64,000 bases of DNA from an uncultured Candidatus Berkelbacteria bacterium (GTDB lineage Bacteria > Patescibacteriota > UBA1384 > CAILIB01). The first letter of the stretch is position 1; every line of letters starts with the position of its first letter. The stretch spans positions 14,084 to 78,083 of the forward strand of contig CAILIB010000020.1 in NCBI GenBank assembly GCA_903834195.1, written 5' to 3'. The notes below the pieces were generated by a model, which saw only the letters and a program-made list of their open reading frames with translations, did not search any database and was not told where the DNA came from. The position numbers and the translations under genes are program-made. Positions 4,452 through 44,710 of the stretch are shown piece by piece.

Positions 4452-4452
4452 C

Positions 4453-7907: not shown

Positions 7908-7920
7908 TATACTTCAAATT

Positions 7921-7944: not shown

Positions 7945-8051
7945 TGTCCTGCCCGTAGACAAAACCACAACATGTAGTAATTGAATGCTTCCCAAGCAGA
8001 TAATTTCCCTATCAATAGTCGAGGTATATAGGGGAGCAAGATGTAGTGGTA

Positions 8052-8082: not shown

Positions 8083-8089
8083 AAATACG

Positions 8090-8530: not shown

Positions 8531-8539
8531 TCTTCAGTC

Positions 8540-11500: not shown

Positions 11501-11731
11501 GGTGTAGACACGATCAAAGAGAAGGTTACTCCGGTAACTGTACCTACAGCAGTTAATCAGACCATCCGACTTGAGATTCAAAATGAGAAAGTGACCGAAA
11601 CAACAAAGAAGAAATTCAGTTTCGATGCTACAGGTGATGCTCCAACCTGTTCAAACTGTGGCGGAATGACTAAGCGAAATGGTGCCTGCCACGTCTGTCT
11701 CGACTGTGGTGAAACAAGCGGTTGTTCCTAG
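8540..11731 (+). CDS. nrdJ: Class II (adenosylcobalamin-dependent) ribonucleotide reductase NrdJ
   Basis: The RNR catalytic fingerprints SNPCSEYMFLDNSACNLASINL and GYSSDF are present, together with the class II C-terminal region and a terminal CxxC...CxxC zinc ribbon. It follows nrdR after a 9-nt gap. Confidence 0.85.
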   Translation: MPTSSTPLVHRFFTTPDVEPFDMVDWEKRNSKIINEKGTTIFELKDAEIPAEWTQLATDIVVSKYFRKAGVPETGNEVSVRQVIYRIARSIREAGESFGNYFTSKEEADAFEKELTYILVTQRGAFNSPVWFNCGLYQRYGIEGTHGNWYWDFDNNKINQLEHNYVRPQCSACFIQGVSDDLMDMFDLLKAEATLFKYGSGTGTNFSNIRGRGEMLSGGGSSSGLLSFLKVFDAAAGSIKSGGTTRRAAKMVCLDIDHPEIMDFINWKVTEEKKVAALVAGGYSSDFNGDAYGTVTAQNSNNSVRVTDEFMKAVAEDGTWNTIARTTGGVMSTLRAREIWDALGKAAWQCADPGVQYDTTVNDWHTCSNTDRINASNPCSEYMFLDNSACNLASINLIKFLDDEGHFDIEAYRQAIRILFVAQDILVDFSSYPTKMIGQNSHDYRPLGLGYANIGTLLMCKGIAYDSPEAFAITGALTAILTGHAYVVSSEMAALKGPFNGYAKNKQPMIRVMKKHRDASYQISEEFCPENLLLAAQEDWEEAVRLGEINGYRNAQATVIAPTGTIGLLMDCDTTSIEPDFALVKFKKLAGGGHFKIVNQSVPTALANLGYSQKEIDDIITYAVGTGSLSDAPFINRDSLMARGITSEDIAKVEKLLPSTFELAHTFNGMNISEASLVGADLPADSFSNPSFDFLKAIGFTAKEIEEANKFVCGMMTVEGAPHLKEEHLPIFDCANKCGKYGTRFIEPMGHVRIMAAAQPFISGAISKTVNLPNEATVDEIKDIYLQGWKLGLKAIAMYRDGSKLSQPLNSAGTKDKDADKNEEVKEVGIKPAAEIASAPVGVRRRLADERESVTHKFSIAGHEGFITVGLYEDGTPGEIFIRMSKMGSVLAGLMDSFAISISIGLQYQVPLEVLVNKFSHVRFEPSGMTTNPNIRIAKSIVDYVFRWMGMKFLDLDSQLQIGYNNMPKAMESEVDDITGSSATLTIGVDTIKEKVTPVTVPTAVNQTIRLEIQNEKVTETTKKKFSFDATGDAPTCSNCGGMTKRNGACHVCLDCGETSGCS

Positions 11732-22167: not shown

Positions 22168-25100
22168 TTATAATTCAATCTTTATTCCCTCTTCTAATGA
22201 GATAGGCTCACCTAACGTACTCATTAAGTGCACGTTTTGCTGTACATTTGGGAGCACTTCCCGCTCTTCAACGACTTGTGGGACGTTCGATGTATGTTCG
22301 GTTAGGGAAGGCAAGCTGGGGGAGTCATCAATAATCATCGGGACTAATTCTGATCCTTCCTCAACACCTCCATTCATCCCCTCAAGGCTCCTTTGCTGTT
22401 CCTTTTCAGCAGCTTTAGCAGCTCGACGAGCAAGAACATCAGATTCCTTTTCACCCAAATACCACCTGTTCCCTCCGCGTTGAGACACTTCCTTATATGC
22501 CCAGCCATCTATGACTTTGAGTGGCTTTTCACGGATCGGTCGACGTTCCCTATTCTGATCTTCCTGAACCTGGTTAACAGGTTCAATTATCGCTGCACTT
22601 GGAACAATTTGCTCAGGAACAACTACTTCTGGTGCAGAAACTACTCCCTGCTCTACTACTTCTTCAGGTTTGAGTCCCCTACTCGGCTCTACAACGACTG
22701 GCGGCGGCGTTGTAAATGTTCTCTGTTGTACAGGTTTAAATGGTGCATCAGGAATAACCACTGGACGTGGAGCTGCAACCTGTTGACGCTGCTGTTGATT
22801 TATGTTCGGTTTCTGTTCGTTATGATATGAAACAGGCTGGTTGAGGATTTGCGCTGCAATTTTTTGCGCCTCTTCTGCCTCACGTTTTCGCTTATACCCA
22901 GCAGTCTCATCTATAATATCTTCAACTTGCTCTCTAGGACGAGCAAAGTGTTGATGGGAATACTCAACTACCCTATCCCTAAAATTTGTATCAACTTTCT
23001 TTGGTGGTAATGTCATCGCTGAAAATGCCTGCGAAGCAACACCATCTACCAGCAACTTAATATAGACCCGAGCCATTTGCAGGTTCACCATATCATCAGG
23101 ACCAAATACAGGTGCAAATTCACGAGCTAAGGCTTCAGCATCTTTTGAACCAACACGGAAACAGATAATACTACCAACGTTACCAAAGACAGCCTCACGT
23201 ACTTCATCCGCCATCTGATCGATATACTGGTGAGCAATGGTTAAGCCAAGATTATACTTACGAGCTTCTGAGAGAATCGTCGCAAAAGAATCAGTTGCAA
23301 AGTTCTGGAACTCGTCTACGTACAAGAAACAGTCTGGACGCTGATCAAACGACACATCAGCACGACTCATCGCCGCAAGCTGTACACGTGTAATCATCAT
23401 TGTTCCAAGTAGTGCTGAATTGTCTTCCCCGATTTTACCCTTTGACAGGTTTACGACGAGAATTTTTTGCTCGTCCATCACTTGGCGAATATCAAAAGCA
23501 GACTTTGGCTGACCAACAATATTACGAATCAAGCTTGTTGAAAGAAATTGCCCAACCTTGTTCAAGATTGACCCCATTTCTTCAACCTGTTGTTTTTGCT
23601 CTTTGGCAGCCCATTCATTTTTCCAGAAATCGAGCACAACTGGATCTTTGATCTGTGGAATTACCCAGTTACGAAAACCAGGGTCGGTCAAAATACGTGG
23701 AATACCAAGCATAGTTGGATTCTCAGTATCGAGCAGGGCAAGTGTTGCATTTCGTAGGATATACTCCAAACGAGGTCCCCAAGAGTTTCCGAAAATCTTT
23801 TTAAGTGCACCAACGAATCCTGAAGCGATATTCCCCTTTTGATCTGGATGAGAAATATCGAGCACATTAAATGCAATCGGAAATTCGCGATCAGATGGAT
23901 CAAATACAATCGTATCTTTAATACGATGCTCTGGAACTGACTCAATCACTTTATCTGCAAGCTCTCCGTGCGGATCCACCACAATAACGCCACGACCCTC
24001 ATTAATGTCATCAATGATCATGTTCTCTAGCAGCGTTGACTTTCCTGCACCAGATTTACCAATGATATAGATATGACGCTTACGATCGTTCAATTTAATA
24101 CCAAACTCTTCAACGTGATTACGGAAATCAGTTTTACCAAGTACAGTAAGATCCATTGCAGGAACTTCACTACTCAACGGAACATTCGGTGGAGCTTCAG
24201 CTTTCTTACTACCGGCCCATGAAATTGCTCCACTTTCCACACTAGCAGCAGGGAAGTGATACACCGACGCAAGCTCTTCAATATTGAGCACATTCCCCTT
24301 CTTTTCGAATTCACGGGCAATGTACTGCAACCAACTTGGGTAGTGATCAATTTTAATCTCACCACTCTTGAACCCATTCAGGTTTGTAGTATTGTACTGC
24401 TTGAACGCAGCTAGCGTAGCTTGAATCCGTGCACGCGCACTATTCTCATCCGTACCGATTACAACTAAACGAAAAATAGTTGAGAACCCAAGCTTAGTAA
24501 TCTTTGATTCAATCCCTTTAAGCGCAGCTTCCTGGGGCGAAGATAACTTAGGTGGCTCCCCTGGTTTAGATTCCTCAAAACCAGTTCCCGGGCTAGCGAT
24601 TTCTCGAATTAACTTTACACTAAACCCTGCTGCTCGCATCACTGGATGAGGCTTTTTAGCACCAGGCGTCTTCCCTGCACGCATTGCACCAACGTGAGAC
24701 ACCCCTTTATTTTGCCAATCATCCCCTACTGGTTGAACAACCATTTGTAACCAAATTTGTTCCTTATTTTCAAGATTGTCCATTACAGCCATCAACCCAG
24801 CGAGTGGGTCAATATCAGAACTTGAATAGGTCTTAATTGGGTATACATCATCTTTGGTGAGCTGAATCTCGGCAATTGCTACGTGGAGACCTTCAAGATG
24901 TGCCTCAGCTGTGTAATCTGTAACTTGTTTTATTTGCAACTCGGGGTACTGCGCATAGAGCTGACCTTCAACAAACTCCCGCAACTGCAATGGTGTAAAG
25001 ACATAAAAGACAATTGAATCTTCTTTGGCGACAATCTCAAAAGAAACGTACTCCTGTACAACCTGATCACCCTTAAAGATTCCATGGAGAGCCGAAAAAA

Positions 25101-25227
25101 ACTGCTCTGCAGATGCAGGGCCTTTCTCATTCTTCTTAGGCACCTGAATTGCGAGCACAACAAAGCTCTGAGAGGCCAGCCAGTCAGCACGACGCTTGAG
25201 ATTTTTCGTACTCTTAAAGAGTGCCAT
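22168..25227 (-). CDS. TraD/VirD4-family (type IV coupling protein-like) P-loop ATPase, paralog 1, with ~390-aa unknown N-terminal domain and Q/P-rich C-terminal tail
   Basis: Walker A IIGKSGAGKST is followed by VVDPHGE and then VFDPSDREFPIAFNVLD (compare TraD LNPLDER). Walker B YVDEFQNF and ARKYNLGLTIAHQ...GNVGSIICFRVGSKDAEALAREF match a TraG-D_C-like domain. The N-terminal domain is homologous to that of the paralog at 25889-28393. Confidence 0.6.
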   Translation of the reverse strand: MALFKSTKNLKRRADWLASQSFVVLAIQVPKKNEKGPASAEQFFSALHGIFKGDQVVQEYVSFEIVAKEDSIVFYVFTPLQLREFVEGQLYAQYPELQIKQVTDYTAEAHLEGLHVAIAEIQLTKDDVYPIKTYSSSDIDPLAGLMAVMDNLENKEQIWLQMVVQPVGDDWQNKGVSHVGAMRAGKTPGAKKPHPVMRAAGFSVKLIREIASPGTGFEESKPGEPPKLSSPQEAALKGIESKITKLGFSTIFRLVVIGTDENSARARIQATLAAFKQYNTTNLNGFKSGEIKIDHYPSWLQYIAREFEKKGNVLNIEELASVYHFPAASVESGAISWAGSKKAEAPPNVPLSSEVPAMDLTVLGKTDFRNHVEEFGIKLNDRKRHIYIIGKSGAGKSTLLENMIIDDINEGRGVIVVDPHGELADKVIESVPEHRIKDTIVFDPSDREFPIAFNVLDISHPDQKGNIASGFVGALKKIFGNSWGPRLEYILRNATLALLDTENPTMLGIPRILTDPGFRNWVIPQIKDPVVLDFWKNEWAAKEQKQQVEEMGSILNKVGQFLSTSLIRNIVGQPKSAFDIRQVMDEQKILVVNLSKGKIGEDNSALLGTMMITRVQLAAMSRADVSFDQRPDCFLYVDEFQNFATDSFATILSEARKYNLGLTIAHQYIDQMADEVREAVFGNVGSIICFRVGSKDAEALAREFAPVFGPDDMVNLQMARVYIKLLVDGVASQAFSAMTLPPKKVDTNFRDRVVEYSHQHFARPREQVEDIIDETAGYKRKREAEEAQKIAAQILNQPVSYHNEQKPNINQQQRQQVAAPRPVVIPDAPFKPVQQRTFTTPPPVVVEPSRGLKPEEVVEQGVVSAPEVVVPEQIVPSAAIIEPVNQVQEDQNRERRPIREKPLKVIDGWAYKEVSQRGGNRWYLGEKESDVLARRAAKAAEKEQQRSLEGMNGGVEEGSELVPMIIDDSPSLPSLTEHTSNVPQVVEEREVLPNVQQNVHLMSTLGEPISLEEGIKIEL

Positions 25228-25231
25228 TTAA

Positions 25232-25852
25232 TTATATAAGGTTATCAATTACTGCCCATTTTGCAGGCTTTTCTGACGGCACCATAACCATTACACGATC
25301 ACCTGCTTTTAAGCCGTAGAGTGACATATAGTACGTCACACAGGCAGTGAGAATATTATAGGTTGTTCCTTCATCAGTATCTACAACACAATGGTTTCCT
25401 TCCATACGCAGAGTTCCCGCCATTGTTTTGCGCTCGATAGGCCCGAGTTGTTTGTACAAATATTTACCATCTTTGGTAATGTACAGCTTTAGTGGATCAC
25501 CTTCCACAAGCTTACTCTTACTCGCGTAGTTTGGTAGAACTTGGTAACTCTTACCTTGTGCATCAAGCATGCGCTCACCATCAAAGATACCTTCAATAGC
25601 TTCATCTTCTACACGCGGAGCCATTTGCATAAACCCTACTGGAGTTGCTGTATCAGAACCATCTGCATCTAGAGTAACTCCACTATCTGTAGGTGGAATA
25701 TATGAAGCACTAAGAGGAGTGATGTTTGTACTCGTTGAAACGAGATGTCGTAAGGTACGCACATCATTTTCGATTGTCTCAATAAGTCGGAGGATTCGCT
25801 CTGCATTGAGCTGTCCCGCCGCATCTTCTATGATTTCTGTATTATCTTCCAT
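25232..25852 (-). CDS. Hypothetical protein (coiled-coil N-terminus, beta-rich C-terminus)
   Basis: An ORF of native composition wedged between the two ATPase paralogs, with 4-nt and 36-nt gaps. No recognisable motif was found. Confidence 0.4.
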   Translation of the reverse strand: MEDNTEIIEDAAGQLNAERILRLIETIENDVRTLRHLVSTSTNITPLSASYIPPTDSGVTLDADGSDTATPVGFMQMAPRVEDEAIEGIFDGERMLDAQGKSYQVLPNYASKSKLVEGDPLKLYITKDGKYLYKQLGPIERKTMAGTLRMEGNHCVVDTDEGTTYNILTACVTYYMSLYGLKAGDRVMVMVPSEKPAKWAVIDNLI

Positions 25853-25888
25853 TTGGTGTTTATATTAGTGTTTGTATTGCTTTCTATT

Positions 25889-28393
25889 TCACCGTGATGA
25901 TATCACACTACGTGCACGCATGCGAATTTCAGCCTCTACCACATCCCGATCTCGGCCATACTTTAACCGAGAGAGCTGCCGCACTGCCTCGCCTACCTGA
26001 ATGTTTTCATGTGCATCCGGCGCATAGGATGTAACATTGAACGGCTCGGTAGGAGCACCGTCAATAAGCATCCGAATATAGAAATTATATTTCTCTGTAT
26101 TCACCAGGTCATCTATTTGAACTGGGTCCATTTCCTTCTGGAGGAATTCAGCATCAAGCGCGCCAATACGCCAGGAAATCATGGTTCCAATGTTACCCAT
26201 AATCGCATCGCGCGTATCGTCGTCCAACTGTTTAATAAACTGGTTGGTAATATTAAGTGAAAGAGCGTACTTACGTGCTTCGGACAGAATTGTTGCAAAG
26301 GTTTTAGAGGTAAAGTTCTGGAACTCATCCACATAAAGGAAAAATGGCCGACGTTCTGGTTCTGGTATATTTTGACGTGAAAAAGCCGAAATTTGAATTT
26401 TTCCTGAAATAATCATTCCCAAAAGCTGAGCATTCATTTCACCAAGCAAGCCTTTAGGCAACGTTACGAGGAGAATCTTACCTGAGTCCATGACCTCTCG
26501 GAAATTAAAGGCACTATCTTGCTGACCAATAATTGGTCGCATAATATCGTTACTCGTAAACTGAGTAAGTTTTGAGGTAATATATGGAACAATGTTCTGC
26601 AGCGCTGCGTCTCCCCCAGCTTTTTCAGCTTCTTTCGTCCAGAAGTCTACCACAACTTGGTTACGACATTTGGAAAGCTTCATTTTTCGAAACTCCTCAT
26701 CTGCTAACACTTTTGGAATTTCCATAAGCGTTGAACCACTTTCTGGATCTTCCATCAGGAGCAACATTGCATTGCGCATATACTGTTCGAAAATAGGTCC
26801 ACCTGTCGCACGAAGATCGTACAACTTGTCGAAAATTGAAATCATTTCATTGATCACCATTGTTTTTTGCTCTGGGTAGCGAGCATCAAACTCAAGCAGG
26901 TTCAGTGCAATTGGGCGCGTTGTGTCGGAAGGATCAAAGATGATCACATCTTCAGCCCGTTCTTTTGGAATATGCTTAATAATCCATTCAATAGCGTCAC
27001 CGTTTGGATCCATATAACAGACACCGTGACCATTGCGGATATCTTGCAGAATCATGTTCTGGAACATAACAGTCTTACCAACACCAGTTTTTCCAATCAT
27101 GTAGAGGTGTCGCATACGGTCGGTATACTGCATATACACTGGCAACTGTGCTCCACGGAATTGACTAAATCCAAGTGCCACACCACTGGTTGGCATGTTT
27201 GTAGGTGGCGCCAGTTTACGTGAACCAAGCCATTGAATATTCGGTGTGTCGAGATGACGGTTAGGAAAGTGTAGAACACTTGTCAGTTCTTCTGTGTTCA
27301 TAATCAAATCGGTCTGTGATTTTGCAAAGGTTCGCGTAATATACGGTACCAAAAGATCTCGGTCACCCATATTAGACGTTTTGAACCCATTTGATTCAGG
27401 CGACTGGTACTGCTGGAACGAAGAAAGCATAATCTGCACCTGACTCTTTGCCTCAATTTTTGTGTTTGCGCGCGCCACACACCGAATTTGAACCTCAAGC
27501 GCAACCTTGCTTCCTTTATCTACAAGAAGCTTAGCCTGCTGTTCTTGCAATGCGGTGAGACGAACATTTCCACTACTAATGTTATTGGCTTCATTTGAAG
27601 CTGACTCACTCTCAGAACTAGAAGCAATTGCTTTACCCACCTCTTTAACTCCACCAAAAATCTTGTGCAAAAGGCCCTTCTCTTTTGAACTAAATTGCTT
27701 TCCTTGTTGAACGTTTTGAAGTGCATCTTCAATCGATTTTTGCCACGACTGATCAGCTGGGCGAACTAATATCTGAAAAGCTGCCTTCCCCTGCTGAACT
27801 TTAGAGAGTGAATTTGTAATTGCATTAAGTGGATCACCTTCCAGACTTTTGTACGTCCGAATTGGAAAAATGTACGGTTTAAGCATTTTTAATGCAGCAA
27901 CTTCACTTTCCCCACCTTTTTCAGCAAAAATATCGTAATCGTGCGCAGGTTCAATTTGCGCACTTGGGTACTGAGAGTGAATCTGTCGCTCCATCTGCTC
28001 AATGTACTCACCAGGTGTAACTACGTAGAAATAAATTTCTCCATGATGCGTTACAATTTCAAATGAAAATGTTGGTTGACCATGGATTAATTGACGAAAA
28101 TACTTAGTTTCATGAAAGTGTTGCATCACCGAAAAAACCGGCTCCATTAAGCCAATTAACTCCTTCGGATCACGACGCTCCTCGTCCTCTTTTTGCTGTT
28201 TAGGAAGGAGAACTTTTATGGCTTTCAGGGATTCAAAACGTAGCTTCTCAGATTCTGCCCGCTTTTTTGATATGTAAATCCACACTGCAATGCAGCCTAT
28301 AATCAGCACTGCTGCGGTTATACCGAAAAGCAATCCGGCAGAAATGCCGGAATTGCTTGCAGGACTAGCTGTAGAGTAGTCGTACTGACTCAT
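25889..28393 (-). CDS. TraD/VirD4-family (T4CP-like) P-loop ATPase, paralog 2, with N-terminal TM helix
   Basis: It carries an N-terminal TM helix (GLLFGITAAVLIIGCIAVWIYI), Walker A MIGKTGVGKTV, then MDPNGD and IIFDPSDTTRPIALNLLEF. Walker B LYVDEFQNF is followed by ARKYALSLNITNQ...GNIGTMISWRIGALDAEFLQKEM. It shares the N-domain blocks FYVVTP..QYP and ELTSVLHFP with paralog 1. Confidence 0.6.
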   Translation of the reverse strand: MSQYDYSTASPASNSGISAGLLFGITAAVLIIGCIAVWIYISKKRAESEKLRFESLKAIKVLLPKQQKEDEERRDPKELIGLMEPVFSVMQHFHETKYFRQLIHGQPTFSFEIVTHHGEIYFYVVTPGEYIEQMERQIHSQYPSAQIEPAHDYDIFAEKGGESEVAALKMLKPYIFPIRTYKSLEGDPLNAITNSLSKVQQGKAAFQILVRPADQSWQKSIEDALQNVQQGKQFSSKEKGLLHKIFGGVKEVGKAIASSSESESASNEANNISSGNVRLTALQEQQAKLLVDKGSKVALEVQIRCVARANTKIEAKSQVQIMLSSFQQYQSPESNGFKTSNMGDRDLLVPYITRTFAKSQTDLIMNTEELTSVLHFPNRHLDTPNIQWLGSRKLAPPTNMPTSGVALGFSQFRGAQLPVYMQYTDRMRHLYMIGKTGVGKTVMFQNMILQDIRNGHGVCYMDPNGDAIEWIIKHIPKERAEDVIIFDPSDTTRPIALNLLEFDARYPEQKTMVINEMISIFDKLYDLRATGGPIFEQYMRNAMLLLMEDPESGSTLMEIPKVLADEEFRKMKLSKCRNQVVVDFWTKEAEKAGGDAALQNIVPYITSKLTQFTSNDIMRPIIGQQDSAFNFREVMDSGKILLVTLPKGLLGEMNAQLLGMIISGKIQISAFSRQNIPEPERRPFFLYVDEFQNFTSKTFATILSEARKYALSLNITNQFIKQLDDDTRDAIMGNIGTMISWRIGALDAEFLQKEMDPVQIDDLVNTEKYNFYIRMLIDGAPTEPFNVTSYAPDAHENIQVGEAVRQLSRLKYGRDRDVVEAEIRMRARSVISSR

Positions 28394-28419
28394 TTATTTT
28401 TACCCCCTCCTTAAATTCT

Positions 28420-31400
28420 TCAGGTCGTTTTATGAACAGATGATGCATCAATTGGAGTAGTAAAACCCCCTCTAATTTTTTCCTGTGCAGCAAGTAACTT
28501 AGATATCATCTCTACTCGTGCTGCCCTAAATATTCCACCTTGATCAATATTTCCAGTAATGCCTACATTTTCACGTGCAGCATTCTGAAACTCTCTACCT
28601 GCGTCACCGATGGTACGGAATACCTGATTTTCAGTAAATTGCCGACCTGGGTAAAGATCTCCCATCAAGTACTCACCCAATGCCTGAATATTAATTTCAT
28701 TCTGATTTAGAACATCTGGAATCTGCCCTCCCCATGATCTTGCTCGAGTTACCCATGATTCTTTAATAGCATCTCTATTTAATTCAGAATCACTTATTGG
28801 TAAGAGTTCACGCTCCCCTGCAGCTGGTACCACAGGTGGATTATCAATTCTGTTTCTTAGTCCGGCGAGAAAATCTGCAAACTCGTCAAGATTAAACTCA
28901 CGAGCAACCTCTTCCACCTTACTTAAGCCATCTACTAATTCCTCACTGGAATACTCATTGAATTTGTCTGCATAAATCGTACGCGCAATACCTAGCAACA
29001 CATCATTAGTTAAATCAATTGAATCTAAACCTGTTGGAGTATTAGGAACATTACCCTCTGCAATAATTCTAGCAAAATACTCTCTATAAAATGATTCAAC
29101 ATCACTAACAGTCTTTTTATCATGAATGTCACCCATTTCAATGTAAAGTTTGCCAGCAGCATTATTAAATGCTTGTTCTAGATCTGCTTGAACCACACCA
29201 GCACCTAAAACCTCAGGTATTGCATATTGAATAGCTACTAATCGTTGATGAATGTCATCAGCTGAAAAAGTTGAAATTTGACTTCTCAGTTTTGCATTCT
29301 CTTCATCTGAGAATATTAATTCTACAATTTCATCAGACGAATCATCATCTGCAGGATCAAATGCATTCAACTCTGAGATTAAATCATCTGGTATATCATC
29401 GATCTTTTCTAATCCAATACCTTTAAGTAATTCAGATTCAGGAGTTGGAGCTACTTCTGGAACTTGTAAGACATTGCTTAAAGCATCTTCAGTATTATAT
29501 TCATCACTTGCGAGAAGAGTACCGCGGGCTGTTGTAAGCAGATTGACCAATCGATCCCTATTTCCAGTTCCTGAGGCTATATTTTCTAGTGCATTTAAAC
29601 ACTGTGAAATACGTAGAATAACATCATCCAACATGATATTACTCTCTGATCCAAGAAAGAGATCATGCCCAATCCCCCTAAATGTATGAGGCAGAACTGT
29701 TAACCCTTCAGGTATATCTGCTTGATTAACAAGCACTGTCACTATATCTTTTTCAATCTTTTCCTGACTAATCCTCTCAGTGATATCAATTCCACTATTA
29801 CTAGAATCTAATCGATCTGAGACCGCCATACAAATCGCTGTAAGATCCTCACCATACAAAGCCAGTTCAGGGTTTATGCCAGCTGTTTCAAGTTCGGCAC
29901 GTACATGGAAATATTCAGCTGCTGCATACACAAGACTAGTAGCATTATCCAGGTTAGAAATAGCATTACGAAAACGCTGTAATTTTGCATCAATTTCTAG
30001 GTCAGCCTCACTGTGTGGCTCTGGACGATTATTTAACTCAGACTGCATCAAGCCCATCCACGGATTTGCAACAATCTTTAACTCACGCTTAGCATGCTCA
30101 ACAAATGCACCTTCATCAGCAATATTATTCAGAGCTAAATAGTAAGGATTATCTTGAACTTTAACCCCAGAATCGGTAGAAATTGGATGCGCATCCGGAT
30201 TCACTAAGCGATCATACTGATACTTATTATCTTCAAGCATCTTAGCATGAATACTTTTGAGCTTTTCAGCAATTTGCAGATAAAACTCATGCTCAGCTCT
30301 GGTCTTATTATTAAACTGATCTGGTCGAGTCTTATCGTTATCAGTACTAAACCGTGGGTCCTTTTCTCCATTCCGCGAATCATTTTCATCATCAATATCA
30401 GCCATATTCTTGCGAGCTGCGATACCATTAACAATATCAATAAGCAACTGCAAGCGGTTAGCGTACTCTGTTTTTGCAATTATACTTGTACGATCAGCAA
30501 AACCTTTTGCACGTTCCTGCGGAGTTTGAAGGTAGTTAAACAATCCAGCATCTGAATCTAAGCCAGCCAAAATATCTTCAATAGGTTTCATCCAACCTAA
30601 CTGATGATCGCCACGTACATTCGCTGCCTGGTCTTCACTAAGATTGGCAGGTGCATCATTCGGCGTCACATTTACATGATCTAATACCTGCTCATAGAGA
30701 TTGGAACGTAGAACACTTTCGAGGTCACGATTTTCAGCTTCGATAATCGTTAGCACGTTAACAGCTGCACGAACTTGTTCCTTAGTATATTCCCGAATTT
30801 CTTCAGGATTTAACTTCTTCTTTTCCTTGTCTTTGTCCTTATCCTTGTCTTTATCTTTGTCTTTATCTTTGTCTTTTGAATCTTCACCAACTACTTTAAA
30901 TGCACTTCCAACACGATCCTCACCTCGAGCTAATTCAACTAAGTCTCGGGTCATTTCTTGCCAACGAGGGTGGAACTTGCGACCATTTTCACCAATGATT
31001 TCTTCTGGAACAAACTCAACCATTCCAAGTTTGTCGCCAAGTTCTGTGCGAAGGCCATCAATATATTCTTTATTCTCCAGATCCTTACGTGAAACAACAA
31101 TAACTGCACGAAATTCGCCTTCTGCATTCTCTAGAAGCTTCTTCAAATTTTCAATCTGATCTTTATCAGCAAAGTAAATTGTTCCGCCTTTATCAGCATC
31201 ATTCCATTGAGTATCAGTAATCGCACGAAGTTTATCGAAGAGACCCTCATGACCGTTACGTTTGAGAAACTCACGATGACCCTTTACCTTATTCTGAAGT
31301 TCTTTGAGTTTTTCTCTCCCTGAAAGCTCAGTGGTAATGTCCATCTCATCAATCTTCTTGGCATTCAAACGCCTTTGTTCAGCCTCATCAATCATCTTCT

Positions 31401-33576
31401 GCTTATTGCGGTAAGCTTCCGAATTTGGATCTTCAGGAGAACCAGGACGAACTGTTGAACGACCAGTAAGTGGTTGATAGAGTCGCTCTAAATTAGAAAT
31501 ACCACGTGCAGATCCATACTTCTGAGTAAGTCTGTTACTAGCTGAGTTAACCATCGAAAACCCAGCATCCAACCCCGCAGCCGCAGTGACCCAACCTAAA
31601 TCAGGACCAAAAGTATTCATCAAAATCTGCCACTGTGGATTTGAATGAATTGCAGCATGCATTAATGGATTTGTCCCATTAGCAATACCAGCAAGCTGAC
31701 TCAACTGAATAGGAGATGTCACACCAGATGGATCCATCAGATGCCAGTTCGCATTGAGGAAGTTCTGCGTAACGTGAGGCATGTTGTGTGCCAACGCAGT
31801 AGTATCTGTATTATTCAATACAACATGCCAAGCATTATCTGCTGGATTAAATACTACGTGATGACCAATACCAGCAGCATGTGTTAGATGCGATACAGGA
31901 TCAGTAATATTAGCTGAATACGGTGTAAGGTGAGTTGTATGTGTTAATGGATTGTACACATCAGTTGCATGCCCAAAGTTCACATTACTTCCAACCATAT
32001 CTACACCATGTGACTTCGCAGCAGCAAGTGAGTTTAGTGCATCTAGTCCTGAACCAATACCACCTCCAAGCACTTGTCCTAAGAAGCGACTCCACGCAAC
32101 TTTCTTGTCTGTCTTACGGAGCTGTTCTTCGAACGTTTCCACAGCATCAGCACCCTCACCGCCACCGCCTTTTTGAGCACCTCGTGCACGAGACTCAGCT
32201 GTTTCCTTAAGAGAAGTAACGATCATGTTAAACTGTCGGGTCAGATCTTCCTCACTCATCTCTGAGTTTTCCAACGCAGAAGCTGCTGCCGACTGGTTTT
32301 TGAAAAGTGTTTCAAGAATATTGTCAAATGCAGCGTCACCAAGACTTTTTCCATTCTCTTTCTTACCGTGCAAAGCTTTGTCTTGCATGGAGCGCGCAAT
32401 CCAGCTTGCGATACCAGAGCCGATAATGCCTCCTGCGATTGCAGGAATAGCTACACCACCAGTAACCAAACACATGATTCCTGCTGCTGCAACACTTGAT
32501 ACACCTGTTCTCGCTACATCACCAAGCACTTTCCCCATGAGACGTGGAAATCTGTTGGTTAACTTGGTTTTCATGTTTTCGACAAAACCAGCCTTCTTAT
32601 TCGCTACTGGCTTTTCTGTACCATCAATTTTAATGAGAACTTCACCACCTTCTTCCTTAGCGAAGGTGCCGTCCTGATTCTTATCATGGATGCCGTAGTG
32701 TTTGAGTGCATCTTGCCAACCACTAAAGTTGAGCGACTTTAAGTACACCTCAGTCATAGCCGAGCTACGCCCGTTATGTGCCAAGTTACCAAGCACAACC
32801 TTCATTTGGTCAGGAGAGAGATTTTCCCCTGCTTGTGCACGAGCTACGTAGTTCTGCGCCAGTGCATTCTCGTATGCGAGGAACTTACCTTCACGCTTAT
32901 CACGCTCCCGCTGCTCTAAGTCACTAGCAGCCTTATCGCCGTTCAACTTTTGGTCGGCCAACTCTTTACCCACTGAGTTGCGAATATCGTTGTACTCTCT
33001 CTCAAGTTGATCAACACTCATGGTACGTATACCATCCTGAGCAGCTTCGTACGCGCCTTGGTCAAACTTTGGTTGAGGTGGAACTTTTGGCTTTGGCTTC
33101 TCTACTGGCTTAGGTGCTTCAACAGGCTTTTCCTCTTCCTTACCTTTGCCAGATTCTTTATTGCTATCACCCTCAATAAAAGCCACTGTAGTAGTCGTTG
33201 TAACCACATCTCCGTTAGGTAACACTTTTTTAGAGACAGTTGTCCCTGTTGGAGTAACTACTGGTGACGTAGGAGTAGCTGTTGTCTGAACAGGTTCAAC
33301 TGTAGCAGTAGGAGCAACAGGGGTTCGTTTCTTCACCTTTATCGGCGTAGCTTTAGCTGGTGGTGTGACAGTAGGGGTAGTGGCAGTTCCCACTACTGGT
33401 TCATTTGTTTCAGCCCCCACTACAGGAGGAGTCTCATCCTTTTTCACTGCAGGGGTCGATTCACCAACTTCGGCAGTACCTGTTGATGCAGGTGTTGCTT
33501 CGCTATCATTTTTTACTGTAGCATCACTATTTTCAGCAGCTGATACTCCACCACCACCGACTAACTCTTGTAACAT
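28420..33576 (-). CDS. Giant (1718-aa) protein of unknown function with glycine-zipper TM segments, His-rich block and (KD)n tract
   Basis: A single uninterrupted ORF with a T/P-rich N-terminal region and Gly-zipper hydrophobic segments (VSSVAAAGIMCLVTGGVAIPAIAGGIIGSGIASWIA and VLGGGIGSGLDAL). A His-rich segment (HLTHAAGIGHHVVFNP...) and KDKDKDKDKDKDKDKEKKK are present. The reading frame is tightly coupled to the flanking genes. Confidence 0.5.
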   Translation of the reverse strand: MLQELVGGGGVSAAENSDATVKNDSEATPASTGTAEVGESTPAVKKDETPPVVGAETNEPVVGTATTPTVTPPAKATPIKVKKRTPVAPTATVEPVQTTATPTSPVVTPTGTTVSKKVLPNGDVVTTTTTVAFIEGDSNKESGKGKEEEKPVEAPKPVEKPKPKVPPQPKFDQGAYEAAQDGIRTMSVDQLEREYNDIRNSVGKELADQKLNGDKAASDLEQRERDKREGKFLAYENALAQNYVARAQAGENLSPDQMKVVLGNLAHNGRSSAMTEVYLKSLNFSGWQDALKHYGIHDKNQDGTFAKEEGGEVLIKIDGTEKPVANKKAGFVENMKTKLTNRFPRLMGKVLGDVARTGVSSVAAAGIMCLVTGGVAIPAIAGGIIGSGIASWIARSMQDKALHGKKENGKSLGDAAFDNILETLFKNQSAAASALENSEMSEEDLTRQFNMIVTSLKETAESRARGAQKGGGGEGADAVETFEEQLRKTDKKVAWSRFLGQVLGGGIGSGLDALNSLAAAKSHGVDMVGSNVNFGHATDVYNPLTHTTHLTPYSANITDPVSHLTHAAGIGHHVVFNPADNAWHVVLNNTDTTALAHNMPHVTQNFLNANWHLMDPSGVTSPIQLSQLAGIANGTNPLMHAAIHSNPQWQILMNTFGPDLGWVTAAAGLDAGFSMVNSASNRLTQKYGSARGISNLERLYQPLTGRSTVRPGSPEDPNSEAYRNKQKMIDEAEQRRLNAKKIDEMDITTELSGREKLKELQNKVKGHREFLKRNGHEGLFDKLRAITDTQWNDADKGGTIYFADKDQIENLKKLLENAEGEFRAVIVVSRKDLENKEYIDGLRTELGDKLGMVEFVPEEIIGENGRKFHPRWQEMTRDLVELARGEDRVGSAFKVVGEDSKDKDKDKDKDKDKDKDKEKKKLNPEEIREYTKEQVRAAVNVLTIIEAENRDLESVLRSNLYEQVLDHVNVTPNDAPANLSEDQAANVRGDHQLGWMKPIEDILAGLDSDAGLFNYLQTPQERAKGFADRTSIIAKTEYANRLQLLIDIVNGIAARKNMADIDDENDSRNGEKDPRFSTDNDKTRPDQFNNKTRAEHEFYLQIAEKLKSIHAKMLEDNKYQYDRLVNPDAHPISTDSGVKVQDNPYYLALNNIADEGAFVEHAKRELKIVANPWMGLMQSELNNRPEPHSEADLEIDAKLQRFRNAISNLDNATSLVYAAAEYFHVRAELETAGINPELALYGEDLTAICMAVSDRLDSSNSGIDITERISQEKIEKDIVTVLVNQADIPEGLTVLPHTFRGIGHDLFLGSESNIMLDDVILRISQCLNALENIASGTGNRDRLVNLLTTARGTLLASDEYNTEDALSNVLQVPEVAPTPESELLKGIGLEKIDDIPDDLISELNAFDPADDDSSDEIVELIFSDEENAKLRSQISTFSADDIHQRLVAIQYAIPEVLGAGVVQADLEQAFNNAAGKLYIEMGDIHDKKTVSDVESFYREYFARIIAEGNVPNTPTGLDSIDLTNDVLLGIARTIYADKFNEYSSEELVDGLSKVEEVAREFNLDEFADFLAGLRNRIDNPPVVPAAGERELLPISDSELNRDAIKESWVTRARSWGGQIPDVLNQNEINIQALGEYLMGDLYPGRQFTENQVFRTIGDAGREFQNAARENVGITGNIDQGGIFRAARVEMISKLLAAQEKIRGGFTTPIDASSVHKTT
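30825..30878. repeat. Hexanucleotide microsatellite (YTTRTC)n ~9 units encoding the (KD)n tract of the giant protein
   Basis: The tandem units ctttgt ccttat ccttgt ctttat ctttgt ctttat ctttgt ctttt are visible on the plus strand. Confidence 0.8.
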
Positions 33577-33588
33577 GGTAGTAAAAGA

Positions 33589-33951
33589 TTAAACAGCAAC
33601 AGGCTGTGCAGGGCTAGTAGCAACTTGGAATGTAACCGCCAATTCAAGACGATACTGAATCGCCTCTTCAAGCATTCGAGCAACAATATCGATACCGCGT
33701 GCCTCAAAAAACTTCATAAGTTCATCGCCTTCAAGAAGATCCATTTGTTCACGATCTTCAGGAGAAAGATCTTCTACAATCGAGAGCAAGAGACGTGCCT
33801 GAATTGTATCGTTCATTGCATCTAAATATTCCTCTTTTTCAGAGTCGCTCATACTTCCCAAACCGAGAAGGTTAAAGATGTCTTCGTTTAGAATGTCGTC
33901 GATAGTGATTGGCTTTGCCATAGGAGAATGTGCACTTGTTTCTTCTATCAT
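33589..33951 (-). CDS. Small acidic hypothetical protein (first gene of the ATPase/giant-protein operon)
   Basis: A 120-aa D/E-rich protein that ends 12 nt upstream of the giant ORF. No recognisable motif was found. Confidence 0.4.
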   Translation of the reverse strand: MIEETSAHSPMAKPITIDDILNEDIFNLLGLGSMSDSEKEEYLDAMNDTIQARLLLSIVEDLSPEDREQMDLLEGDELMKFFEARGIDIVARMLEEAIQYRLELAVTFQVATSPAQPVAV

Positions 33952-33984
33952 ACATCACCTTTATTGTTTGCAACAATAGACTAT

Positions 33985-34021
33985 ATAAACAAAATCCCCC
34001 AGAGCCGATGGCCCAAGGGGG
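33985..34021 (-). terminator. Terminator hairpin (CCCCCTTGGGCCATCGGCTCTGGGGG + ATTTTGTTT on minus strand) after the Pro-rich gene
   Basis: On the minus strand, a G/C stem is followed by a T-rich run. It separates the 34042-34629 gene from the downstream operon. Confidence 0.5.
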
Positions 34022-34041: not shown

Positions 34042-34629
34042 TCACGGGTGTCGACGAGATGCGCGACGTAAGCGGGCACGGGCTTGGGAAAGCCTGTGCT
34101 TACCGTACGCCAGTGTCCCGGCGATCACTGCCACAGAAAGCAGTATTGCTGCGATAGTTACAACCCATGACGCTACCCATTGTGGTGAGTTTTGGTCAGA
34201 GTTGTCTGGCATGTATAAGCCAGAATGTTCCAGTGGCGGAATCGCCGAAGTTGTTGCAGGCGCAACAGGTGTCGACGGCAGTGGAGTTTTTTTCGTCGGC
34301 GGTACTTGGTGCCCACTTGAATGAGCATGTTTCGTGCCGCGGACCCTCCCACCAGTTCTCGGCGGTGACGATGGTACAGGAGGATCTTCCTCCTGGTTCA
34401 CCCTGATCGTAATATGCTGACCCTCAGGATCAGCATCACGAAACCGCACGACGTCACCCCCATACATAGGGAGCCTAGCTTTCTCAGCTGGAGGTAGTGC
34501 TGGTGCTCGTGGAGTATGAACCACCTTTGGTGGAGCCGCTGGTGGCTCCGGGTCGAGGGTCATTCCTTGCTGCGCAAAGGCAGCAGCGGAAATAACCAGA
34601 GTACCGAGGCATGCGACCAGAAATTTCAT
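34042..34629 (-). CDS. Secreted Pro-rich protein with signal peptide and C-terminal TM anchor; GC-rich gene
   Basis: The N-terminal signal MKFLVACLGTLVISAAAFAQQ and a P/A-rich body are followed by a C-terminal hydrophobic helix plus an RR-rich tail. GC content is visibly higher than in flanking DNA. Confidence 0.45.
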   Translation of the reverse strand: MKFLVACLGTLVISAAAFAQQGMTLDPEPPAAPPKVVHTPRAPALPPAEKARLPMYGGDVVRFRDADPEGQHITIRVNQEEDPPVPSSPPRTGGRVRGTKHAHSSGHQVPPTKKTPLPSTPVAPATTSAIPPLEHSGLYMPDNSDQNSPQWVASWVVTIAAILLSVAVIAGTLAYGKHRLSQARARLRRASRRHP

Positions 34630-37692: not shown

Positions 37693-37907
37693 TTTCCGAG
37701 TTAATAAGGTAATAAAATAAAAAATTCGCTCAGAGACAGAGCGAAACATCACACAACTCGCGTTGATATGCGCCTCGGCAGGACTTCTTCCGTTAGGATG
37801 CCTACTGTCTCTGGTACAAAGATACTTTACCTGATTTCCAGGTTGAGGTCAATACTTGGGTAAAAAAATATGTTTGACCGGGGGTGCCGGCCAAACATGA
37901 AGCGGAT

Positions 37908-42467: not shown

Positions 42468-44600
42468 TTACAAGATGTCGAGATTGCGGAGACGATTATG
42501 TAAGCGCTTCTTGAGAAGGTACCAACGAGTACCGTAACCAGCACCAGATAGACCCATTAGTCCAACGAGACCAAGCTCGGCTTCAGGACCAGTGTGTGGT
42601 AACTGAATTGGAGGGGTAGGTGTTGTAGTTGGAGGTGTTGGAGTAGGCTTTACTGAACATGCAAGTTCAGTTGCTTTTGCAGTATCACTTACTGTTGGAA
42701 CCTGATCACCAGATGCGTATGCAGTATTTACGATACTCAAGTTTGATGTAAGACATGCGTTAACCGATGCCTTAAAGACAACTGTTTTACCAAGACCAGG
42801 AGCAAGATCAGTTAAGATAAATCCTTGACCAAGAAATGCATTTTGATCAGTAATTGGCTGCACTTCATCATCAATCGTAAGACTATTCGAGATGTAGGTA
42901 ATCCCGGCTGGAATTACATCATGAAGAATCGGATTGGTAATTGTTGCGTTACCGTTGTTAAGAACTGTAATACGGTAGGTAAGAACCTGACCAGCAGTTA
43001 CATTTCCAGCATCATTTACATATGTACCATTCTCAACTTTTACATCCTTTTGGATGATCAGACCTTTAGTACAGCTGAAGATTACATCAGCATTGTCACG
43101 AGCCTGGAGTTTACCTTGGTAATACACTTCAGCCCAGTTTGAGAGTAGTGAAGGAAGATTACAGTTGCCTGTTACTTCAGCATTGAAAATGATTTCTTTG
43201 CTACCAGTACTTCCGTGAGTCATGCTTGCAATGGTATATCCATTGTTCACGATTGAATTATCAGCAACTGGAACACCATTTACCGTAAGACCACCCTTGT
43301 AGATGATACCTGCAGGAAGTAAATCCTTAATGGTTACATTCTGAGCGTCATCAGTACCTGTATCTTGTACGGTAATACGATAGTTCAAAATATCACCAGG
43401 AGCAGCGCTTCCCAAACGTTGGTCGTACCACATTTGAGTTTGATCCTTACGAACTTCTTTCACAATTGAGAAAGAAACCGTGTGGATATGCTGATTTAAG
43501 ATTGTAACAGTCACACAGTTTGTAGGAGTTGAAAGTCCAACGAAACTTGATACTGCACAGTTCTGTAAATTGGTTGAATCTGCAGGAAACTTGGTAGTAT
43601 CTGCAACTTTAACCTGGAACATGAGGTAGAGTGCTGAAGAAGGTGTAGGAGCCATGTCTTCAAAAGCCCATGTAATCTTATTACCATCAAACACTGAACG
43701 ACTATCGAGTAAGTTCACGCGGTAATCGGCGTTGTTACGCTTAATAACGATGAATGAACTATTTGGAATGTAGGTAAAGCGCGGGTCAAGCGCATCAGTA
43801 ATCTGAGGAGCAAGACCAGTTGCTGTACCAGTGTTCTGTAAGAAAATCTTATAATCAATAATGTCGCCTGGACGAGCTGTTGCGGTTGTACCGAAGTCAG
43901 CCTGACCATTGTCGAGCATTACGCGCTTATTAGTATTGATCTGAGCAGAACCGCCCTCGATCCGAACTTGGATCTGAACAGCTTGTGCATAGGTCCAACA
44001 CCCTTGTTGATCACCAAGATTAATACCATTGGTAGTAATATCGTCACCATTTACGCCGGTTGGGAAGGATTGCTGAGCAACGAGCTTAACAAGATTTCCG
44101 TTTGCATCTACTTTCGTAGTGTAGTAGGTAGCAGAACCTTGCACGTAGGTAAGAGCAGATGGCTTTGTAGCATCTACTTCTACTACTCCTCGTACTGATG
44201 CTGCATTGTCTGCCGAAACAGTACCAGTTGGATGGAATACTGTAGCAGTACCCGAACCAAGGTCAATTTTGAGACGAACATTATGGGCAACAGAGTGGAG
44301 AATACTGTTGTGGTCCCAAATGAGGAAGTTAACTACATCACCTTGTTGTGCAGTAATATGATTACCCCACGCCTGACCTGGAGCAGCAACCTGAAAAGTT
44401 GGGAGCTCGCCGGTTGGCGCACTGTTAAACTGAGGAGCATCAGCAGATGCGCTCATTGGTGATGAAATTGCGAAGATAGCCAGTGCGGAAAGTCCGACAG
44501 CTGCCTTAGCGGTTTTCGTAAATGTTTTGCGAAGAAGAGTTGTAATCTTCATGCGAATGTAGTTAATAACGTATACAAGTTGAATACTCGTTTGTACCAT
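42468..44600 (-). CDS. LPXTG-anchored surface protein with repeated beta-domains (DUF11-like)
   Basis: An N-terminal signal peptide is followed by repeated Ig-like segments (…VLTYRITV.NNG…) and a TPTPPTTTPTPP linker. The C-terminus has LPHTG, a hydrophobic helix and KKR, which is a classic sortase sorting signal. Confidence 0.7.
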   Translation of the reverse strand: MVQTSIQLVYVINYIRMKITTLLRKTFTKTAKAAVGLSALAIFAISSPMSASADAPQFNSAPTGELPTFQVAAPGQAWGNHITAQQGDVVNFLIWDHNSILHSVAHNVRLKIDLGSGTATVFHPTGTVSADNAASVRGVVEVDATKPSALTYVQGSATYYTTKVDANGNLVKLVAQQSFPTGVNGDDITTNGINLGDQQGCWTYAQAVQIQVRIEGGSAQINTNKRVMLDNGQADFGTTATARPGDIIDYKIFLQNTGTATGLAPQITDALDPRFTYIPNSSFIVIKRNNADYRVNLLDSRSVFDGNKITWAFEDMAPTPSSALYLMFQVKVADTTKFPADSTNLQNCAVSSFVGLSTPTNCVTVTILNQHIHTVSFSIVKEVRKDQTQMWYDQRLGSAAPGDILNYRITVQDTGTDDAQNVTIKDLLPAGIIYKGGLTVNGVPVADNSIVNNGYTIASMTHGSTGSKEIIFNAEVTGNCNLPSLLSNWAEVYYQGKLQARDNADVIFSCTKGLIIQKDVKVENGTYVNDAGNVTAGQVLTYRITVLNNGNATITNPILHDVIPAGITYISNSLTIDDEVQPITDQNAFLGQGFILTDLAPGLGKTVVFKASVNACLTSNLSIVNTAYASGDQVPTVSDTAKATELACSVKPTPTPPTTTPTPPIQLPHTGPEAELGLVGLMGLSGAGYGTRWYLLKKRLHNRLRNLDIL

Positions 44601-44645
44601 TTATAGCAAGATTTGTCAATAGATTATTAGATTCAGGAGCATATT

Positions 44646-44690
44646 TTCTACAAAAAAAGTCCCCCCGTACACATGGCACGGAGGGCTTAG
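44646..44690 (-). terminator. Terminator hairpin + T7 run (minus strand) after the secreted-protein gene pair
   Basis: The minus strand reads CCCTCCGTGCCATGTGTACGGGGGG followed by ACTTTTTTTG. Confidence 0.55.
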
Positions 44691-44710
44691 GGATTTCTCC
44701 CGACGAGTTG

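Follow-up and report, generated by a model that had tools for sequence, protein, structure and literature searches.

Two paralogous ATPases of predicted VirB4-like architecture in a five-gene chromosomal cluster of an uncultured Candidatus Berkelbacteria bacterium

Why would a Patescibacteria chromosome carry two related ATPases resembling the coupling proteins of type IV secretion systems (T4SSs), next to a giant glycine-zipper protein and with no recognisable T4SS gene close by? The question is raised by a five-gene cluster at positions 22168–33951 of a 64,000-nucleotide stretch of DNA, hereafter the window, from an uncultured Candidatus Berkelbacteria bacterium (GenBank assembly GCA_903834195.1, contig CAILIB010000020.1, positions 14,084 to 78,083). 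The ultrasmall Patescibacteria account for a large share of bacterial diversity and are attached to host cells, and their envelope transport is mostly unknown. In the survey of Quinonero-Coronel et al. (2025), 5,713 homologues of VirD4-type type IV coupling proteins (T4CPs) were found in 2,918 of 3,035 Patescibacteria genomes and 148 of the 5,713 lay near virB4; a separate canonical VirB4 was found in 2,417 genomes, and the T4CP gene was suggested to have possibly been exapted for another function (PMC12102498). The two ATPases of the window belong to these unlinked "T4CP homologues" already counted in Patescibacteria, and the gene family is therefore a known one (PMC12102498). Its members occur in approximately 96% of the surveyed genomes, at about two copies each, and are thus more widespread than the T4SS itself. 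Three points are new against the literature searched: the predicted VirB4-like fold of the N-terminal domain, the existence of two lineages with distinct partner modules, and the opposite transposon sequencing (Tn-seq) phenotypes of their probable representatives in one species. Together these points turn an annotation footnote into testable hypotheses. We propose that this chromosomal cluster encodes a membrane translocation motor with no tie to a canonical T4SS cluster, a reading to which we assign a probability of about 0.5.

The cluster is real and chromosomal, and it lies in a Patescibacteria genome. It consists of five open reading frames (ORFs), all on the minus strand and separated by gaps of 12, 26, 36 and 4 nt, exactly as an earlier note on this DNA had described: S120 (33589–33951), a small acidic protein of 120 aa; G1718 (28420–33576), a glycine-zipper giant protein of 1718 aa; A2 (25889–28393), an ATPase of 834 aa; S206 (25232–25852), a 206-aa protein presumed to be an adaptor of the A2-type ATPase; and A1 (22168–25227), an ATPase of 1019 aa. 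Every sizeable ORF in the window was scanned against Pfam, and no VirB4, VirB6, VirB8, relaxase or other T4SS domain was detected among them, in line with the note's remark that a canonical T4SS cluster is missing from the window. Genes for virB3, virB6, virB8 and pilins were likewise absent from the window and from the relatives' loci L082–L086.

The two ATPases align over 728 aa with 34% identity (E = 3e-134). Their translations contain a Walker A motif (GKSGAGKS in A1, GKTGVGKT in A2), DPHGE in A1 or DPNGD in A2, and FDPSD and the Walker B motif LYVDEFQNF in both. Both proteins pass the Pfam cut-off of 20.5 bits for TrwB_AAD_bind (40.8 bits for A1, 23.7 for A2). The view of the two as paralogs with a T4CP-like nucleotide-binding domain (NBD) is upheld. 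The TraG-D_C-like C-terminal block that had been read in both proteins holds for A1 (23.1 bits, cut-off 22), and A2 falls just short of it (20.4 bits). The N-terminal domain (N-domain), previously called unrecognised, is in fact Pfam PF26449 (DUF8128), as given by precomputed Pfam hits on the identical database proteins P0001 and P0121; no mention of DUF8128 was found in the literature searched.

In A1, the DUF8128 domain occupies aa ~20–335 (nt 24223–25170, minus strand) and is followed by a TrwB/VirB4-like NBD with an all-alpha insert at aa ~360–775 (nt 22903–24150, minus strand) and by a disordered tail rich in Pro, Gln and Val (aa 776–1019). Towards the C-terminal end, beyond the disordered linker, lies the motif KPLKVIDGWAYKEVSQRGGNRWYLGE (aa ~901–926; 22450–22527, minus strand), which is present once in the window; Y911, G918 and W922 do not vary among A1-type homologs, and K912 and E913 hardly do, making it a candidate partner-docking peptide. 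A2 comprises a single N-terminal transmembrane (TM) helix within aa 12–46, DUF8128 at ~aa 100–400 and a TrwB/VirD4-like NBD at ~aa 415–800, and the DUF8128 domain of ~350 aa lies between its TM segment and the NBD. In this clade, A1 is free of hydrophobic segments and TM helices; A1-type proteins of other lineages have a TM segment.

An AlphaFold2 model of A1 residues 1–780, built from a 77-sequence alignment, was confident (predicted local distance difference test, pLDDT, 83.7), and a model of the N-domain alone, from an 88-sequence alignment, was very confident (pLDDT 90.5; predicted template modelling score, pTM, 0.86). When the N-domain model was searched against the PDB with Foldseek, the top 14 matches were all TrwK/VirB4 chains (E from 3e-7, probability 1.0), and the DUF8128 N-domain is accordingly modelled as having the fold of the VirB4 N-terminal domain. 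The modelled C-terminal NBD of A1 has the VirB4 fold as well, with the all-alpha domain as a helical bundle at aa 461–571; 363 of 420 TrwB residues were aligned with the model, the Pfam TrwB_AAD_bind match covers profile positions 10–334 of 387, and the NBD fold is equally close to VirB4, TrwB and DptH. A family profile compared with PDB sequences matched DotL and TrwB, and VirB4 was absent from its matches at E ≤ 1; judged by sequence, the NBD is closest to the coupling proteins. A1 and A2 thus have the architecture of VirB4 and an NBD whose sequence is T4CP-like. The label "atypical T4CP" used in the earlier note fits the NBD and understates the rest, since the VirB4 N-domain fold makes the overall architecture VirB4-like.

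How far the two proteins depart from known families can be seen in the defining features of each. With VirB4/TrwK (R388; PDB 7o42, 8rtb), A1 and A2 have the fold of the N-domain and NBD in common, yet they give no CagE_TrbE_VirB hit, score below the cut-offs for P-loop_TraG (13 bits) and AAA_10 (13.5 bits), and reach only 13–25 bits with the NCBIfam models of VirB4 and TraC type, of which VirB4_plasma, CD1110 and TraC give 16–25 bits, against cut-offs of 325–590; VirB4 genes, moreover, lie beside virB3, virB6, virB8 or pilin genes, whereas the genes of A1 and A2 do not. With the T4CPs TrwB, TraD, VirD4 and DotL they share a TrwB-type NBD with Walker A and B motifs and an all-alpha insert. Canonical T4CPs, however, carry two TM helices directly before the NBD, whereas A1 has none and A2 one, with the ~350-aa VirB4-like domain between, so that the unusual N-terminal layout pointed out earlier stands. 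The NCBIfam T4CP models remain far below threshold (SXT_TraD, 48.5 and 49.1 bits against 366; conju_CD1115, 48 bits against 250), no relaxase or T4SS gene of the kind associated with T4CPs is linked to A1 or A2 in the window, and, unlike T4CPs, A1 and A2 represent two ancient duplicated lineages in housekeeping synteny. Lacking defining features of both families, they are most fittingly regarded as a branch of their own within the VirB4/VirD4 family: A1 and A2 are anciently diverged paralogs in the VirB4/VirD4 branch of the FtsK-HerA ATPase superfamily. This architecture bears on the evolution of the VirB4/VirD4 split.

Membership of that superfamily raises two further identities. A chromosome-segregation translocase of FtsK type, acting at the division septum, would agree with the common superfamily, with the membrane anchor of A2 and of A1-type proteins in other lineages, and with the position of the Saccharibacteria A1-type gene beside ftsQ-ftsW-mraY. 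FtsK_SpoIIIE, however, scores 17.6 and 12.6 bits against a cut-off of 24, and neither a gamma (winged-helix) domain nor a 4TM N-domain is present, so that an ordinary FtsK/SpoIIIE identity was rejected; with their scores below cut-off, the ATPases are ordinary members of neither the FtsK/SpoIIIE nor the VirB4 family. Southlakia epibionticum ML1 (hereafter S. epibionticum) also possesses a canonical, essential FtsK with 4TM, alpha and gamma domains (PMC10633639). The septal role is largely refuted and scarcely probable. For HerA, DUF87 matches A1 only at aa 376–446, the P-loop region (29.2 bits), the NCBIfam model helicase_HerA gives 16 bits against 970, and the N-domain of A1 and A2 is VirB4-like rather than a HAS barrel. 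The pairing of EssC/EccC with WXG100 partners in type VII secretion resembles the cluster in layout only: the FHA domain, the tandem triple NBD, a WXG/LXG motif and homologs of EsaA, EssB, EccB and EccD are all lacking from it.

In PADLOC, the mad8 profile of the MADS defence system matches both NBDs better than TrwB_AAD_bind does (A1 aa 361–723, E = 2e-21; A2 aa 425–774, E = 2.5e-19), which points to a common sub-branch of the family for DUF8128 ATPases and the defence ATPases of mad8 type. Together with weak DndH and HerA hits, these matches are what would favour a module for anti-phage defence with a TraD/HerA-like ATPase at its core, in the manner of MADS (mad8) or Dnd (DndH/DptH). The similarity is nevertheless confined to the NBD; no methyltransferase, nuclease or other MADS/Dnd component accompanies it, and the remaining four proteins have no PADLOC hit. 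Near-universal, vertically inherited families with fixed housekeeping synteny and one paralog essential in S. epibionticum are, in addition, atypical of defence islands. A defence function was rejected for the NBD-only match and the absent system components, and we regard it as very improbable.

The distribution of the family was examined in an A1-centred set of 80 loci from species-representative genomes and an A2-centred set of 80 loci from metagenomes. Both types have thousands of homologs, essentially all in Patescibacteria, with at least 1508 A2-type homologs of ~830 aa in Berkelbacteria, Moranbacteria and Parcubacteria; since both families are present in nearly all Patescibacteria, the suggestion of a lineage-specific apparatus has to be abandoned. 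A neighbour-joining tree places the A2 clade outside every A1-type sequence, those of metagenome-assembled genomes labelled Dojkabacteria, Gracilibacteria and Peregrinibacteria among them, and the duplication is hence old. In most genomes, the two genes occupy separate loci. Among the A1-centred loci, A2 stands beside A1 only in the closest relatives, between tgt and secDF: the order A2-S206-helix-turn-helix (HTH) protein-A1 is found in L002, L003, L005 and L079, and A2 directly followed by A1 in L004 and L006. Of the loci found by exact protein look-up, L082 reproduces the gene order and flanks of the window, L084 has a window-like locus plus an HTH protein, and L085 holds just tgt-(92 aa)-A2-A1-...-secFD. 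The A2-A1 pair hence occurs without the giant protein, S120 and S206 in L085, L004 and L006. The notion of a conserved module therefore survives in part: an ATPase is found together with a giant glycine-zipper protein in other Patescibacteria too, and the five genes do not form an invariable set.

The two types keep different company. A2-type genes are directly preceded by a member of a ~150-aa family (u150) in 28 of 67 loci. Of 61 loci, 13 encode a DUF5663 protein at most three genes upstream, and 18 of 43 have a protein of 590 aa or more on the upstream side; an S206-family protein is encoded directly downstream in 19 of 70. An A1-type gene follows the A2 type in 6 of 70 loci, always in the tgt/secDF synteny where flanks are available. 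In L002, A2 and the pair of DUF5663 and large protein are on opposite strands, which makes the pair a separable sub-module. The partner of the A1 type is a Sigma70_r4 plus HARE-HTH protein (X350), whose gene stands, in 50 of 69 informative loci, at most two genes upstream; the partners of the A2 type are DUF5663, large glycine-zipper and S206-family proteins. Most Saccharibacteria have one A1-type gene in the order der-pth-dprA-topA-X350-A1, convergent with ftsQ-ftsW-mraY. Because dprA-topA precede a HARE-HTH gene and the A1-type ATPase in most Saccharibacteria, the ATPase locus of the window appears, from gene order, to be relocated relative to theirs. In L017, a single ORF of 1340 aa (7644–11666) fuses the Sigma70_r4/HARE-HTH protein to the A1-type ATPase, which could reflect physical interaction of the two unless it is an assembly artefact. 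In L072–L075 and L077, two of which are labelled Buchananbacteria, DUF8128 (424–486 aa) and the NBD (500–668 aa) are separate adjacent ORFs, for example at 4265–5629 and 5636–7474 of L072, with a Sigma70_r4/HARE-HTH-type gene ahead; this split resembles the TrsD/VirB4 split reported for the Patescibacteria T4SS.

Published Tn-seq data for S. epibionticum, a genetically tractable species, assign opposite phenotypes to its two genes of this kind. SEML1_0293 (921 aa, TrwB_AAD_bind) was called non-essential (NE) at all three time points (PMC10633639, Tables S1 and S2); its Pfam content is that of A1, and its context (dprA-...-topA-...-'RpoS'-0293) is the A1-type synteny described above. The neighbouring SEML1_0294, annotated as RpoS and in fact a Sigma70_r4/HARE-HTH protein, is essential (Wang et al. 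2023, Table S1); since the ATPase is not, the HTH protein has a role beyond it. SEML1_0142 (1019 aa, annotated with a TraM-recognition domain) has an NBD from approximately residue 381 and was called essential (ES) at all three time points including T0, as one of 61 class I genes; SEML1_0141, the 139-aa gene upstream of it, was called GD/ES/ES (PMC10633639). The NBD start and the small upstream gene are those of A2-type loci, and by elimination and layout SEML1_0142 is probably the A2-type gene and SEML1_0141 its u150 partner. The two ATPase genes lie at separate loci in this species, and no giant glycine-zipper protein adjoins them. A class I essential gene and a dispensable one, both of this family, are thus available in one organism.

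These data bear on whether the pair, or at least A1, is a DNA-uptake or DNA-processing motor that pulls DNA across the membrane in natural transformation, replaces ComFA, and relies on HARE-HTH or S206-type adaptors to bind the DNA. The dprA-topA-(Sigma70_r4/HARE-HTH)-A1 synteny across Saccharibacteria and S. epibionticum and the fusion in L017 are in its favour. SEML1_0293, comEC, dprA and a ComF-like gene are all non-essential in S. epibionticum, and the name 'ComFA' does not appear in Tables S1 and S2 (PMC10633639). The closest characterised analog, CedD, also imports DNA. On the other hand, dprA and topA are adjacent in bacteria widely and regardless of this ATPase, the dprA-topA-recR genes of the window lie ~15 kb from the five-gene cluster with no HARE-HTH gene in the window, and a DNA-binding domain was detected in none of the five proteins. 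Uptake fails as an explanation for both paralogs together, given that comEC can be dispensed with and the probable A2-type gene is essential (class I), and we consider it distinctly unlikely. A narrower claim is better placed: with its HARE-HTH neighbour, its dprA-topA neighbourhood and its comEC-like dispensability in S. epibionticum, the A1 type is most likely DNA-linked. For the A2 type, whose probable ortholog is essential in that species, the most likely substrates are the large membrane or surface proteins of the adjoining genes.

A different account regards A1 and A2 as orphan coupling proteins, that is, substrate receptors of a T4SS encoded elsewhere (VirB4, VirB3, VirB6 and VirB2-like pilins), with S120 and G1718 as a chaperone-effector pair delivered to the host bacterium. 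The T4CP-like sequence of the NBD fits this account, as does the A1 tail, which is like those by which TraD and DotL bind adaptors; t4cp genes are often unlinked (PMC12102498), and G1718 is effector-like in its very fast evolution and lack of a signal peptide, with a small acidic protein adjoining. The archaeal Ced and Ted DNA import systems offer a precedent, as CedD/TedD is a chromosomal VirD4-like ATPase encoded far from the rest of its machinery, without a TM domain in some orthologs, and serves a non-conjugative process; in Sulfolobales the unlinked CedD is needed for DNA import (PMC11823120). CedD is among the better NCBIfam hits of A1 (E = 4e-9), yet at 35.6 bits against a cut-off of 600, its best match covers only the P-loop region (aa 363–427), no DUF8128-type N-domain has been described for it, and its function has been demonstrated only in Sulfolobales. 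The orphan account is further weakened by the N-terminal architecture, which is that of VirB4 rather than of a T4CP, and by the occurrence of T4CP-like genes in ~500 more genomes than VirB4. The T4SS cluster of S. epibionticum was reported to lack a recognisable coupling protein, and its genes were called GD/ES/ES (Wang et al. 2023; PMC10633639); the A1-type gene is NE and the other paralog ES already at T0, and neither phenotype matches that of the T4SS. We therefore judge the orphan account to be unlikely.

The accessory proteins indicate what the proposed translocation motor might act upon. G1718 has no signal peptide and no Pfam domain. It runs from a low-complexity N-terminal region through a glycine-zipper hydrophobic region and a His-rich block to an acidic C-terminal half of ~1000 aa. 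The 38-aa glycine-zipper stretch TGVSSVAAAGIMCLVTGGVAIPAIAGGIIGSGIASWIA (aa 357–394; 32395–32508, minus strand), with a central Pro, reaches a Kyte-Doolittle maximum of 2.14, is the sole strongly hydrophobic segment of the protein, and probably forms a membrane hairpin. The His-rich block lies at aa ~520–650 (31627–32019, minus strand) and is flanked by weaker Gly-rich segments (~aa 497–520 and 655–680); 10 of the 34 His residues fall in aa 501–600 and 4 in aa 601–700. A hexanucleotide tandem repeat at 30819–30876 (minus strand; period 6, 9.8 copies, score 67–81) encodes the (KD)n tract DSKDKDKDKDKDKDKDKEKKK. The earlier description of the protein is accurate for the His-rich block and the (KD)n tract and overstated for the several TM segments, of which only one is strongly hydrophobic. 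The VirB6-like identity that it had raised is not borne out, as G1718 has one clear hydrophobic hairpin and lacks the polytopic core (at least five TM helices) of VirB6. L003 has separate genes for a membrane protein of ~700 aa and an acidic protein of ~537 aa, as does L002, there on opposite strands; the idea that G1718 is a fusion of two such proteins found no support in sequence.

Homology of G1718 was found only with the 1172-aa protein in the same position of L082 (aa 251–515, E = 1.5e-8, 20% identity). As A2, S206 and S120 are 67%, 54% and 44% identical between the same two loci, G1718 evolves much faster than its neighbours. Large proteins encoded beside DUF5663 and A2-type genes in other lineages have a hydrophilic N-terminus, no signal peptide, one or two Gly/Ala-rich hydrophobic segments (~80–100 residues apart where there are two) and a long variable remainder. 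A hidden Markov model of 11 such DUF5663-linked proteins matched none of G1718, L082_1172 and L002_697. In L005, a 1302-aa protein (29–3937) fills the giant-protein slot upstream of A2; it has no glycine-zipper segment and shows, by eye, the calcineurin-like metallophosphatase motif GDxHGD...GDxxDRG...GNHD.

S120 (26 D+E against 8 K+R residues) gave no match at E ≤ 0.1 in a direct local Pfam scan, and its link to DUF5663 (PF18908) runs only through relatives. It is 44% identical to a 115-aa protein of L082 that itself has a weak precomputed DUF5663 hit, and is related to a 134-aa protein of L084 that carries an unmarked one; homologs occur in L002, L003 and L084. Similarity to these proteins places S120 as a putative DUF5663-family member. 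S206 combines an N-terminal helix with a conserved beta-rich C-terminal domain of ~125 aa bearing the motif NYASKSKLVxGDxLKL...YKQxGP. A phmmer search against 1.84 billion representatives returned 982 matches at E ≤ 1e-3, 667 of them at E ≤ 1e-10, all through aa 82–206; the S206 profile gave only insignificant matches in PDB sequences (DotY, E = 0.43), and Pfam scans of S206 homologs and ten longer family members yielded nothing significant beyond weak hints of RuvA_N and RimP-SH3.

In the T4SS of R388, the N-domain of VirB4 holds VirB3 and VirB8 and pairs inner with outer VirB4 protomers. By analogy, A2 would assemble as a membrane-docked hexameric motor whose VirB4-like N-domain provides the surface to which membrane partners bind. 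The lineage-variable membrane platform, channel or cargo of A2 would consist of the DUF5663 and giant glycine-zipper proteins, with S206 serving as adaptor. A1 could join through the same N-domain as a second, soluble ring or partner, and its tail might recruit partners or substrate in the manner of the TraD and DotL tails. Such a machine would be independent of a canonical T4SS cluster, or at most loosely coupled to one.

Several considerations weigh against this translocation motor. The hexamer, the pairing of A1 with A2 and the roles of S120, G1718 and S206 are proposed from homology and gene order. A virB4 cluster may lie elsewhere in the genome and be served by A1 and A2. Assignment of SEML1_0142 to the A2 type is probable on the basis of annotation, domain boundaries and a small upstream gene. 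The adjacency of the HARE-HTH gene to A1 could be regulatory, given that the HTH protein is essential and the A1-type ATPase is not. Partner sets also vary: a Sigma70_r4/HARE-HTH gene and a u150 gene were both sought in the window and neither is present there. Finally, common ancestry of the giant proteins across lineages is unproven, architecture alone being what they have in common.

A wider version of the idea is that Patescibacteria possess a second, previously undescribed, T4SS-independent machine, composed of a motor with VirB4 architecture, an oligomerising giant membrane part and small helpers (DUF5663, u150 and S206-type proteins), with the A1 type as a DNA-handling offshoot. The class I call of SEML1_0142 and the GD/ES/ES calls of SEML1_0141 suggest that such a machine would be needed for viability on the host. 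We put this version forward tentatively, as possible and somewhat doubtful in its full combination; were it true, DUF8128 ATPases would constitute a third branch that keeps the ancestral VirB4/VirD4 architecture.

Expression signals were examined across the cluster region. Promoter-like and terminator-like sites were no more frequent there than in shuffled sequence, and co-transcription of the five genes is thus argued from their spacing, along with weak or absent Shine-Dalgarno sites. The single transcript proposed earlier is compatible with the spacing and gains nothing from the promoter and terminator signals; the promoter that had been placed at 33952–33990 finds no counterpart, as no consensus sigma-70 site was detected in that interval by promoter scan. 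Shine-Dalgarno sites are weak or absent before G1718, S206 and A1, which suggests translational coupling. S120 has a Shine-Dalgarno-like AAGGTGA 5 nt before its ATG, and a strong AAGGAGG precedes A2. Rfam and tRNA scans gave no match within the cluster. The independent terminator reported upstream was recovered as a terminator-like hairpin at 33996–34019 (minus strand; 8-bp stem, 4 GC pairs, T-rich tail), which marks the end of the upstream gene U195 (34042–34629) and the 5' boundary of the cluster.

U195 (minus strand, 195 aa) lies between tgt and the cluster and carries a signal-like segment at its N-terminus and a TM anchor at its C-terminus. The same interval in L082 and L084 encodes proteins of the same layout (351 and 280 aa, respectively) that are non-homologous to U195, and it looks like a variable surface-protein slot. 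The surroundings are otherwise of housekeeping type. One flank carries secD, secF and gmk, and the other tgt, the genes for ribosomal proteins L7/L12, L10 and L1, pth, a ybaB-family gene, prfA, cysS, recR, topA, dprA and mfd; ftsA, ftsZ, nrdR, rmuC, rluD and the genes for a class II ribonucleotide reductase and a UvrD/PD-(D/E)XK helicase are also present. The tgt ... secDF-rluD-rmuC synteny is kept in L082, L084 and L085, base composition across the cluster is unremarkable, and the cluster is not a mobile element.

A few minor observations concern other genes of the window, all on the minus strand. The protein encoded at 62752–63453 gives a weak match (19.5 bits) to the type IV pilin N-methylation motif, and that at 1994–2809 is an SLT lytic-transglycosylase protein; neither gene is linked to the cluster. 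In the dprA-topA-recR cluster (48970–52491), recR and the end of topA share 20 nt. The region 42468–46947 encodes a 710-aa DUF11/CLIPPER-type repeat protein, probably a surface protein, followed by proteins of 353 and 404 aa without a Pfam match; similar CLIPPER-repeat proteins lie upstream of prfA in L085. The ribosomal protein L1 ORF (39321–40340; 339 aa, TTG start) matches the L1 domain in two stretches and is longer than the 240-aa L1 of L085, owing to an N-terminal extension or insertion or to an over-called start. Upstream of the L10-L7/L12 genes, the Rfam L10_leader (RF00557) was detected at 37709–37832 with 46 bits against a gathering score of 44; because it overlaps the 5' end of the longest L10 ORF call (GTG at 37752), the true L10 start is probably further downstream.

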